Source: Escherichia phage RB3. Taken from it: DNA of 64,000 nucleotides. The stretch lies in sequence record KM606994. One strand, written 5' to 3'. This document shows, piece after piece, positions 5,236 through 6,461 of the stretch. The position numbers and the translations under genes were made by a program. The first letter of the stretch is position 1, and each line of letters starts with the position of its first letter. The notes under the pieces are model-generated. The model was not told where the DNA came from. It searched no databases and worked only from the letters and a program-made list of their open reading frames with translations.

Positions 5236-5263
5236 TTTATTCTCCTCGGTAGTTGATAGGGTA

Positions 5264-5293
5264 ATAGTATCACTACTAAAACCCCATGTAAAC
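5264..5293 (-). promoter_or_regulatory. T4-type early promoter, repeat copy A
   Basis: Minus-strand GTTTAC at 5293-5288, 18-nt spacer, TACTAT at 5269-5264; shares about 55-nt core with copies B and C. Confidence 0.45.
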
Positions 5294-5311
5294 AACTTTG
5301 TGAATTATTTA

Positions 5312-5599
5312 TTACAAAAGATTTTTAGCAATAATCTTGAGATGTGCCGCAGAAATGTGTTTAGCTTTAAACAACGCAGTTTCTTCAGCAGGAGAGATAA
5401 CGATTGTAGCACCATCCTTTTTAGCAGACCACCCATCACCTAGGTAAACAGTACCTTTGATTTCTTCACCATCAACCAGACTAATCATCGGTTTACCTTC
5501 TCGTCCTTTATTTGCTTTAATAACTTCAGAAGTAAGAGTAGCTTCAGTAATAGTAGAAACCGGGGTAGTCGTAGAAGTAAATTCTTTGAAAGTTTTCAT
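5312..5599 (-). CDS. ipI: internal protein I-like head protein with N-terminal capsid-targeting sequence
   Basis: 95 aa; N-terminus MKTFKEF...ITE matches internal-protein targeting sequence with gp21-type cleavage site; position between tRNAs and 57B as in T4; assignment to ipI by position and length only. Confidence 0.6.
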   Translation of the reverse strand: MKTFKEFTSTTTPVSTITEATLTSEVIKANKGREGKPMISLVDGEEIKGTVYLGDGWSAKKDGATIVISPAEETALFKAKHISAAHLKIIAKNLL

Positions 5600-5629
5600 T
5601 TTATTTTCCTAATTAATTTTGATGAGATA

Positions 5630-5659
5630 ATAGTATCATAACTAAAACCCCATGTAAAC
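5630..5659 (-). promoter_or_regulatory. T4-type early promoter, repeat copy B
   Basis: GTTTAC at 5659-5654, 18-nt spacer, TACTAT at 5635-5630. Confidence 0.45.
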
Positions 5660-5671
5660 AACTTTGTGAAA

Positions 5672-5929
5672 TTATTTTAAATCTTCTAATCGTTTCTTCA
5701 TCTTAGAACCATTTTTAGCGATTTCACCTGCATCGGAGCATAATGCTAAAAGTGCTTTAACTTTCGTTTGGTCTCCTTTAAAAGACGAAGGATCGACTGC
5801 AGCAGCAAGTTCTTTAATACGGGAGAAAAGACGCTCAGCTTCAGCTAAAGCCATTCCAAGCTTTACTTCCATACCGTGAGAAGATTCAGTGATAGTAGTT
5901 TTTGTAGCAAACTCTTTGAAAGTTTTCAT
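5672..5929 (-). CDS. second capsid-targeting-sequence internal-protein candidate (85 aa), divergent mature domain
   Basis: N-terminus MKTFKEFATKTTITE almost identical to the ipI-like ORF through the predicted cleavage site, rest unrelated; own promoter copy. Confidence 0.6.
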   Translation of the reverse strand: MKTFKEFATKTTITESSHGMEVKLGMALAEAERLFSRIKELAAAVDPSSFKGDQTKVKALLALCSDAGEIAKNGSKMKKRLEDLK

Positions 5930-5960
5930 TTTTATTTTCCTAATTAATTTTGATGAGGTA

Positions 5961-5990
5961 ATAGTATCACTACCTCATCAGTATGTAAAC
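5961..5990 (-). promoter_or_regulatory. T4-type early promoter, repeat copy C
   Basis: GTTTAC at 5990-5985, 18-nt spacer, TACTAT at 5966-5961. Confidence 0.45.
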
Positions 5991-6002
5991 AACTTTGTGA
6001 AA

Positions 6003-6461
6003 TTATTTTAAATCATCTGCCCAATCGAGTTTAAGAGGCTCTTTATATTCACGGTCAAGTACAACCGGAATTTGTACATCACCGCTAAATGATAAGGGCC
6101 CAACATTATAAGACAATGTTATATGCGGTGTGTAATCATCAAAATCATGTGTAGCACCTAGTGCCCGCGCATACATGTGTCGACAGCGCAGATATTCAGA
6201 ATCTAACACAAGTACAAGAGTCGATCCATCTTGTGTTTTCCATACTTCTAAATGTCCAGAAGAAGCTACTTCAAAACTTCCACTCGATGGAACATATGGA
6301 ACATTTACTCTCGAATAACATATAGTCGAATGAATTTTTTCTCTAGGAACTGGATTAGGAACACGTAAAGAGCGCTGGAGTTCTTCCAGCGCGTCAAGTG
6401 TTAATTCTGAAAACTTAGCTGCTACATAAAGACCCGTTGAAAAGTCTTTAAATTCCATCAT
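6003..6461 (-). CDS. 57B: gp57B-like conserved hypothetical protein
   Basis: 152 aa, matches T4 57B length and position upstream of 57A. Confidence 0.7.

Follow-up and report, generated by a model that had tools for sequence, protein, structure and literature searches.

In T-even bacteriophages, most open reading frames (ORFs) for internal proteins (IPs) are reportedly bordered on both sides by a sequence of about 70 bp in which a T4 early promoter is overlapped by an inverted repeat, and the abstract of a 1994 study is said to have suggested that this sequence mediates recombinational shuffling. Here we analyze a 64,000-nucleotide stretch of Escherichia phage RB3 (sequence record KM606994), hereafter called the window, in which three related units are arranged on the minus strand in the order 57B (Acb1), copy C, ip5, copy B, ipI, copy A and trna.4, ip5 and ipI being IP genes. 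The T4 homologues of these units were first annotated in 1985, with both promoters and both stem-loops (X03016; Broida & Abelson), and the model of IP-gene shuffling is attributed to Repoila et al. (1994, EMBO J 13:4181) by the papers that cite it (PMC2839356, PMC4122927). According to Arbiol (2010, PMC2839356), the elements of the T-even IP loci are built on T4 early promoters and have stem-loops that are weaker and A/T-rich; they are analogues and not homologues of the PeSL (promoter-early stem-loop) elements and may underlie the plasticity of the IP loci, a view repeated in Comeau (2014, PMC4122927). These two papers gave the shuffling model a more general form; mini-circle intermediates have been shown only for the PeSL of RB49/phi1. 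The repeats, the promoters and the shuffling model are therefore already known, and the finding that we report below is correct but not new.

Results

A repeat search recovered one family of three direct copies (5233-5321, 5599-5687 and 5930-6018, with spacings of 366 and 331 nt) and a second family that pairs 5565-5620 with 5895-5950, while BLAST bounded the units at 5895-6018 for copy C, 5565-5687 for copy B and 5230-5310 for copy A. On the minus strand all three share a 30-base core, TTCACAAAGTTGTTTACAT-N13-TGATACTATTA, that spans 43 nt at 5262-5304, 5628-5670 and 5959-6001; it has exactly three matches in the window, gains no additional site when up to two mismatches are allowed and did not occur in any of 100 shuffles. 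The initial annotation had described three tandem copies of an early-promoter cassette, and three repeats are indeed present above chance, but copy A is not the equal of the other two. Only the core is common to all, and beyond it copy A resembles B and C no more closely than do other T4 early promoters. Copies B and C have in addition the same 27-nt leader, CTCATCAAAATTAATTAGGAAAATAAA, which is identical between them at 27/27 positions and found at no other site in the window, and both pass through an AGGA ribosome-binding site (RBS) into ATG AAA ACT TTC AAA GA(A/G) TTT, i.e., MKTFKEF, just as had been proposed for their extension through the Shine-Dalgarno sequence and the first codons. Copy C comprises an A/T-rich tract with the stop of 57B, whose final codons GAT TTA AAA TAA fall within the copy, then the promoter, the leader, the RBS and the first ip5 codons, and it is identical to the sole 57B-ipI junction of T4 (the PE2 region). 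Copy A, which differs from the PE1 region of T4 at a few bases, is shorter and weaker, with 79-85% identity to B and C across about 81-85 nt.

Over the 3.2 kb around the repeats, the window is 100% identical to RB5, RB6, RB7, RB9 and RB10, 98.4% to RB14 and about 96% to T4 (an RB5 position minus 63,992 gives the window position), and the RB5 genome provided the control set, namely 26 TG-bearing early-type promoters forming 325 pairs. Copies B and C rank first among these pairs both over the whole unit (0.85, from -30 to +55) and over the leader (0.89, for a mean of 0.38), and third in the promoter part, in which the A-B and A-C pairs rank 5th and 15th; the leader of copy A is closer to other RB5 early leaders than to that of B or C. 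Because copy A is shorter, weaker and lower-ranked than the B-C pair, the locus contains two full cassette heads (B and C) and one related early promoter (A), and not three equal copies.

The boundaries of the repeats were then set against the breakpoints that separate the window from 14 close relatives (13 distinct phages). In all the relatives with different cargo (7/7), the change is located inside the repeats, which answers the check suggested in the initial annotation, namely whether repeat boundaries and breakpoints coincide; RB14 is collinear with the window. In T4 (57B-ipI-trna.4), homology extends to 5895 and starts again from 5687, the single repeat matches C and B over 124 bp, and the absence of ip5 amounts to exactly one 331-bp repeat period; ESh18 and PhiZZ30 display the T4 pattern. 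RB51, of the T2 type (57B-ip5-trna.4), lacks ipI, which corresponds to one 366-bp period, and the one promoter that it has downstream aligns with B as well as with A over 82 bp. In the loci L005, L035 and L036 and in PST (L050), all with different cargo, homology ends at 5909 or 5578, that is at propeptide codon 7, and resumes at 5276 in the -10 region of copy A; taken together with L042-L044, the ends are found at 5909, at 5578 or at 5230-5253 in copy A, and the resumptions at 5276-5298, again in copy A. Lastly, teqdroes, R5505 and T4_ev240 possess an extra cassette 3' of ipI, and this insertion is flanked by duplicated copy-A sequence.

Judged from its sequence, copy B is a chimera, in which the upstream tract, the -35 hexamer and the spacer are of the A/RB51 type, the leader, the RBS and the first codons are of the C/T4 type, and the parental switch lies inside the -10 block. 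Upstream of the -10, copy B shows 0/40 and 2/21 mismatches to the promoter downstream of ip5 in RB51 (59/61 positions match), as compared with 11/40 and 9/21 mismatches to the ipI promoter of T4. Downstream, the relationship is reversed, with 28/43 mismatches to RB51 and only one mismatch plus one single-base indel to T4, this last comparison being read from the printed sequences since the ungapped count is inflated by the indel. We infer that the C-ip5-B-ipI-A order would have arisen by unequal crossover between an RB51/T2-type and a T4-type genome within the shared TGATACTATTA block. Both the location of the breakpoints within the repeats and the two parental promoter types united in copy B speak for the exchange of cassettes through direct repeats that the initial annotation had envisaged.

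The same annotation had regarded the locus as hypervariable among T-even phages, which is readily seen in a set of 47 loci (36 from IMG/VR and 11 named phage genomes), where the 57B-trna.4 interval contains from 0 to 5 IP-like genes that belong to 16 families and form 25 arrangements. Both gene orders are encountered for some IP pairs, including families B-D and D-B, and of the 742 phage records matching the locus, 267 contain the part of ip5 that lies outside the repeats. Some IP genes are devoid of a promoter of their own, and in distant relatives the first IP gene often directly overlaps the 57B stop. A separate case is Shigella phage CM8 (MK962750; L051, 1-2640), which carries a 974-bp tandem duplication, 57B-ip5-ipI-'57B-ip5-ipI-ip8, at whose junction the Ip8 leader, just 3' of a copy-A-type promoter, is joined to mid-57B at an ACTC microhomology; this duplication could be a true segmental amplification or an assembly artefact.

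With respect to the promoters, the scan identified TTTACA-17-TACTAT with an upstream TG and the canonical 17-bp spacer in all three copies, which is the minus-strand GTTTAC-18-TACTAT of the initial annotation shifted by one base. The three copies fit the T4 early class (UP-like tract, -35, TGn and -10) as well as the PST/T4 promoter consensus TTTACW-N17-TAYWAT (Comeau 2014, PMC4122927), and the homologues of copies C and A in T4 are the early promoters PE2 and PE1, both marked 'put.' in X03016. From the spacing, transcription is predicted to start near A5954 (copy C), A5623 (copy B) and A5257 (copy A). A second early-promoter subfamily, AAAAATTTTTTCACAAAACTGTTTACATCCCTGTTCTTCCATGGTACTATACAACTATCAACTAC, lies elsewhere in the window at about 2890-2965 (minus strand, -35 at 2946) and has four further copies in RB5, at 24457, 145891, 162934 and 166560, with at most 82% identity over 85 nt.

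The two IP genes have a common N-terminus, as Ip5 and IpI both begin with MKTFKEF and both bear ITE where cleavage is known (IpI) or predicted (Ip5); of the longer shared signature proposed initially, MKTFKEF is found in both, but TTxITE is approximate only (KTTITE in Ip5, VSTITE in IpI). The IpI of the window is 100% identical to T4 IPI, and both Pfam IPI_T4 (E = 7e-54) and PDB 2JUB span residues 20-95. Because both of them start at residue 20, IpI residues 1-19 (5543-5599), which end in ITE, are the removed propeptide; reviews give 76 residues for mature IPI*, consistent with a propeptide of 19 residues, and the assignment of a capsid-targeting N-terminus is upheld for ipI. It should be mentioned that X03016 (L041, 1954-2193) records a mature IpI of 80 residues, cut after residue 15, where Pfam, 2JUB and later reviews have 76 residues and a cut after residue 19. 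Ip5 matches PHROG 3499 'internal head protein' (E = 1.2e-49), and the Pfam and structure searches returned neither a Pfam family nor a PDB relative for it. Following the (L/I)xE rule, its propeptide is predicted to be MKTFKEFATKTTITE, codons 1-15 (5885-5929), and the sequence motif suggests capsid targeting of Ip5 as well. Among IP-like proteins of related loci, 62 share the motif, and (L/I/M/V)xE ends at residue 10 in 51/62. Capsid targeting by the propeptide has been established experimentally for IPIII and is inferred for other IPs. In the literature, IPI* is an injected inhibitor of the GmrS/GmrD restriction enzyme, and T4 Ip1, Ip2 and Ip3 each block a different GmrSD enzyme.

Each of the three promoters shares part of its sequence with an inverted repeat, a feature absent from the initial annotation. 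The left arm of the copy C stem lies in the spacer and its right arm runs from within the -10 hexamer to past the predicted start; the stem of copy B is weak because its two arms derive from different parents. Since the left arm is situated 3' of the -35 hexamer, the hairpin forms in read-through RNA only. Inverted repeats of this kind mostly have their centre at or close to the -10 and are enriched in the IP locus in comparison with other early promoters: when 37 nt were folded, starting with the final base of the -35 and ending about 10 nt beyond the -10, an energy of -8 kcal/mol or lower was obtained for 74% of 54 distinct IP-locus promoters and 35% of 23 other RB5 early promoters, the sequences being mutually related. 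At least 8 different stem sequences occur in the IP-locus promoters. In a fixed register centred between the first two -10 bases, 62.9% of the cells are paired versus 31-57% for slid partners, and a second register is weaker still, so that covariation in either register is at most modestly above the controls; as at least two registers occur among the stems, no one consensus fold describes them well, and folding the sequences one by one was of more use.

Hairpins around the -10 are also seen away from this locus. Four RB5 early promoters, at 18487, 18985, 130989 and 145178, have hairpins of -15.6 to -17.6 kcal/mol and adjoin small genes, in keeping with the prediction of the PeSL model. In RB5, the second IP locus (RB5 62342-62905) has one gene, Ip4, between vs.8 and e, where T4 has ipII and ipIII, and the Ip4 promoter, ATTTAC...TGATAGTAT, likewise shows a hairpin around the -10, of a different sequence. 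At an early-type promoter of the window (63395-63460, minus strand), the spacer GCTCCTTTG pairs with CAAAGGAG, the RBS of the gene that comes next (ORF of 110 aa, 63069-63401), with a fold of -14.6 kcal/mol (z = -3.0); this pairing could occur in read-through RNA only, and the RBS would then be hidden.

A further contrast concerns the RBS. The trna.4 leader carries GGAGAATAAAA, which contains GGAG and agrees at every position with GGAGRAYARAA, the consensus of strong RegB cleavage sites (PMC3014915), whereas the ip5 and ipI cassettes (5938-5941 and 5607-5610) carry GGAAAATAAAA, which is one base off a RegB site, with GGAA in place of GGAG. Across related loci, GGAG is present in 21/22 trna.4 leaders versus 4/50 IP leaders (Fisher p = 3e-13, the sequences being related). 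The trna.4 leader is thus a probable RegB target, and the sequence of the IP leaders suggests that IP messages evade RegB and hence may be translated late. Taking the two features together, one could speculate, though we consider it rather doubtful, that the promoter-overlapping inverted repeat is maintained by selection for some function of its own and that the GGAA RBS keeps IP mRNA translatable late. Should this be true, the hairpin could mark or stabilise read-through transcripts, such as those made from the late promoter in gene 1, or could instead, as DNA, increase the local recombination rate, and GGAA would keep IP mRNA translatable into the late period, when proheads assemble. In the literature that we searched, no T-even test of the hairpin role or of the RBS contrast was found.

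Regarding the surroundings (Table 1), every gene in the stretch is on the minus strand, trna.4 is followed by trna.3, trna.2 and then the tRNA cluster, and T4 has the same gene order except that ip5 is absent. The 57B protein belongs to Pfam Acb1 (PF23474, E = 2.7e-60; cyclic-nucleotide phosphodiesterase), and some genome records still label it 'RNA ligase' or 'hypothetical'. With 57B (Acb1), IpI (anti-GmrSD) and Ip5 side by side, the stretch reads as a small anti-defence island. On the right, the variable locus is bordered by the conserved trna.4. Late RNA that reads through 57A, 57B, ip5 and ipI probably originates at the late-promoter motif within gene 1. An Rfam scan of 3000-7600 gave tRNA genes and chance matches and nothing else.

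Table 1. Repeats, regulatory signals and genes of the IP locus in the window, in the direction of transcription.
Feature	Position	Strand	Basis or remarks
Gene 1	6688-7413	-	first in transcription direction
Late-promoter motif TATAAATA	7044-7051	-	within gene 1; T4 homologue annotated PL1 in X03016
57A	6458-6688	-	between gene 1 and 57B
57B / Acb1, anti-CBASS phosphodiesterase, 152 aa	6003-6461	-	ORF; 57B annotation in RB5, RB14, T4
Copy C, full cassette head 5' of ip5	5895-6018	-	repeat families; BLAST self-match 6018-5895 vs 5687-5565
Copy C promoter	5961-5989	-	-35 TTTACA 5984-5989; TG 5968-5969; -10 TACTAT 5961-5966
Copy C inverted repeat TGATGAGGTAGTG / TATTACCTCATCA	5951-5980	-	13-bp stem, -17.4 kcal/mol, z = -4.2
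ip5, internal head protein, 85 aa	5672-5929	-	ORF; Ip5 annotation in RB5, RB14; RBS AGGA 5938-5941
Copy B, full cassette head 5' of ipI, chimeric by sequence	5565-5687	-	repeat families, BLAST, parental comparison
Copy B promoter	5622-5658	-	-35 5653-5658; TG 5637-5638; -10 5630-5635
Copy B weakened inverted repeat	5622-5653	-	G-U pairs, -10.4 kcal/mol, z = -2.6
ipI, precursor of IPI*, 95 aa	5312-5599	-	RBS AGGA 5607-5610
Copy A, early promoter and leader of trna.4	5230-5321	-	has 43-nt core; other leader; no capsid-targeting codons
Copy A promoter	5256-5292	-	-35 5287-5292; TG 5271-5272; -10 5264-5269
Copy A inverted repeat ATGGGGT...ACCCTAT	5256-5287	-	interrupted stem, -18.0 kcal/mol, z = -3.3
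GGAG RBS of trna.4, in GGAGAATAAAA	5242-5245	-	perfect match to strong RegB consensus
trna.4, predicted small membrane protein, 61 aa	5050-5235	-	ORF with internal ATG; trna.4 annotation in RB5, RB14, T4; PHROG 1692

Discussion

We consider, with a probability of nearly nine in ten, that the repeats are the regulatory cassettes of the T-even IP locus, which serve at once as expression units and as portable recombination homology. In such a cassette, the order is an A/T-rich tract over the stop of the upstream gene, the strong T4 early promoter TTTACA-17-TGnTACTAT, the inverted repeat, a leader of about 25 nt and the RBS, to which copies B and C add the first codons of the capsid-targeting propeptide (MKTFKEF...ITE). 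As far as can be read from the sequence, each cassette head holds all the signals to express and package whatever gene comes next. The cargo gene would be transcribed early by the host sigma-70 polymerase and late by read-through from the late promoter in gene 1; the propeptide would direct its product to the prohead core and be cut off by the gp21 protease, and the mature protein would be injected with the DNA. The heads (80-124 bp, 79-86% identity) would also offer portable homology to the general recombination of the phage and permit in-register gain, loss or replacement of cargo. The alignments of related genomes place the junctions of natural gains, losses and replacements inside the cassette heads, and these exchanges were probably made by general homologous recombination during mixed infection. 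In laboratory evolution, T4 recombines at homologies as short as 6-10 bp, and patches of less than 50 bp are said to suffice for recombination (PMC2839356).

Several observations weigh against this interpretation. The overall similarity of copy A to B and C is in the upper range of that between unrelated early promoters, so that the repeat is partly just the T4 early-promoter consensus, and no two copies match perfectly for longer than about 30 nt. RB5, RB6, RB7, RB9 and RB10 are identical here, so that over the time spans of laboratory work the arrangement is stable. The CM8 rearrangement used a microhomology of 4 nt, and only one end of its junction is beside a promoter. Moreover, the comparison of genomes shows the sites of exchange and not the enzymes responsible. 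Our literature search yielded no usable transcription-start mapping for RB5 or T4, and promoter use in the copies is putative, based on the sequence and on an annotation of 1985 itself labelled 'put.'.

Among the other explanations, the stem-loops might be transcription terminators that insulate the cassettes, in which case the repeats would be mainly terminator-promoter junctions. X03016 names the homologue of copy A 'pot. IpI terminator' (and that of copy C 'pot. stem-loop structure'), and in the PeSL papers motifs of this kind are described as promoter-terminator composites (PMC4122927). We nevertheless find this unlikely: a terminator scan of 4300-7500 found only an unrelated site in gene 1, and the position of the left arm restricts the hairpin to read-through RNA. 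As a candidate terminator the stem-loop was rejected on account of the T-run missing after all three stems.

It could also be argued that the copies resemble one another through shared function only, the promoters, the RBS and the targeting peptide each being selected without any part as recombination substrates. T4 early promoters are conserved well past the two hexamers (Hinton review, PMC2988021), unlinked RB5 promoters reach 82% identity over 85 nt, and A-B and A-C rank just 5th and 15th among the 325 pairs in the promoter part, all of which speaks for this view. Such selection would hardly account for the complete identity of the B and C leaders, for which no function is known, for B-C being the top pair genome-wide, for the breaks within the copies in all seven cargo-differing relatives or for the clean two-parent structure of copy B, and we hold this explanation to be very unlikely.

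The inverted repeats raise the possibility of a site-specific, integron-like exchange, with the hairpin as the site of a dedicated protein or as a cruciform cut by endonuclease VII, an idea brought up by the PeSL authors themselves (PMC2839356). The enrichment of hairpins around the -10 in IP-locus promoters (74% vs 35%) and the existence of at least 8 different stem sequences would suit it, yet neither an integrase nor a recombinase gene was found in the locus, the junctions are scattered over several places (codon 7, the -10 block and the segment upstream of -35), and single-register covariation is just modestly above the controls, all of which makes such a mechanism highly improbable. That ip5 and ipI are paralogues from a local tandem duplication, of which the repeats would be the conserved remains, is scarcely tenable despite the tandem layout, the comparable length of the two periods (331 and 366 nt) and the common N-terminus, because Ip5 and IpI are unrelated past the propeptide (different PHROG, Pfam and BLAST clusters, E and F, the family assignment on which paralogy was rejected), each cassette occurs singly elsewhere (ipI only in T4, ip5 only in RB51) and the upstream half of copy B matches RB51 at 59/61 positions.

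Exchangeable cassettes that combine expression signals and homology are of consequence for the biology of these phages. Injected IPs disarm restriction systems, so the set that a phage carries helps to decide which strains it can infect, and the cassette design explains how IP genes can be traded fast without breaking their regulation. In practical terms, fusion behind such a head should allow any protein to be expressed and packaged.

How the copies relate to systems already described can be considered from the most general to the closest. An intrinsic terminator is defined by a G/C-rich hairpin and a T-run, and no such run comes after the stems studied here. Integron cassettes are likewise arrays of small, promoter-served accessory genes with structured repeats, an analogy drawn by Arbiol (PMC2839356); they differ in that no integrase of the tyrosine-recombinase type was found in the present locus, that there is a promoter per cassette and that the junctions are spread along the repeat and not confined to one attC-type site. 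The T4 early promoter class (Hinton 2010, PMC2988021; Liebig & Ruger 1989) is recognizable in all copies by its UP-like tract, -35, TGn and -10, but the 43-nt core is confined to three sites in 64 kb, and B and C add a leader and a coding start. The PeSL (Arbiol 2010, PMC2839356; Comeau 2014, PMC4122927) have in common with the copies the A/T-rich tract, the early promoter, the stem-loop, the RBS and the start codon, and both are located at the boundaries of indels or replacements in hyperplastic regions for which shuffling by homologous recombination has been proposed. The stem-loop of the RB49/phi1 PeSL is G/C-rich (GN-loop-CN) and sits just upstream of the promoter, whereas that of the window is A/T-richer and extends from the spacer to the start.

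The closest counterpart is the set of flanking elements of the T-even IP locus (Repoila 1994), for which the citing papers and, reportedly, the abstract describe the same locus, from 57B to the tRNA genes, the same design and the same proposed shuffling. The elements given in these sources, namely an early-promoter sequence, an overlapping inverted repeat, ORFs with a conserved N-terminal leader and a position in one of the two polymorphic IP loci, are all present here, Ip5 had its name as an IP gene in related genomes before, and nothing essential differs. Published as early as 1994, the principle gains from the window just one clean worked example, the ip5-ipI arrangement with its visibly chimeric middle promoter.

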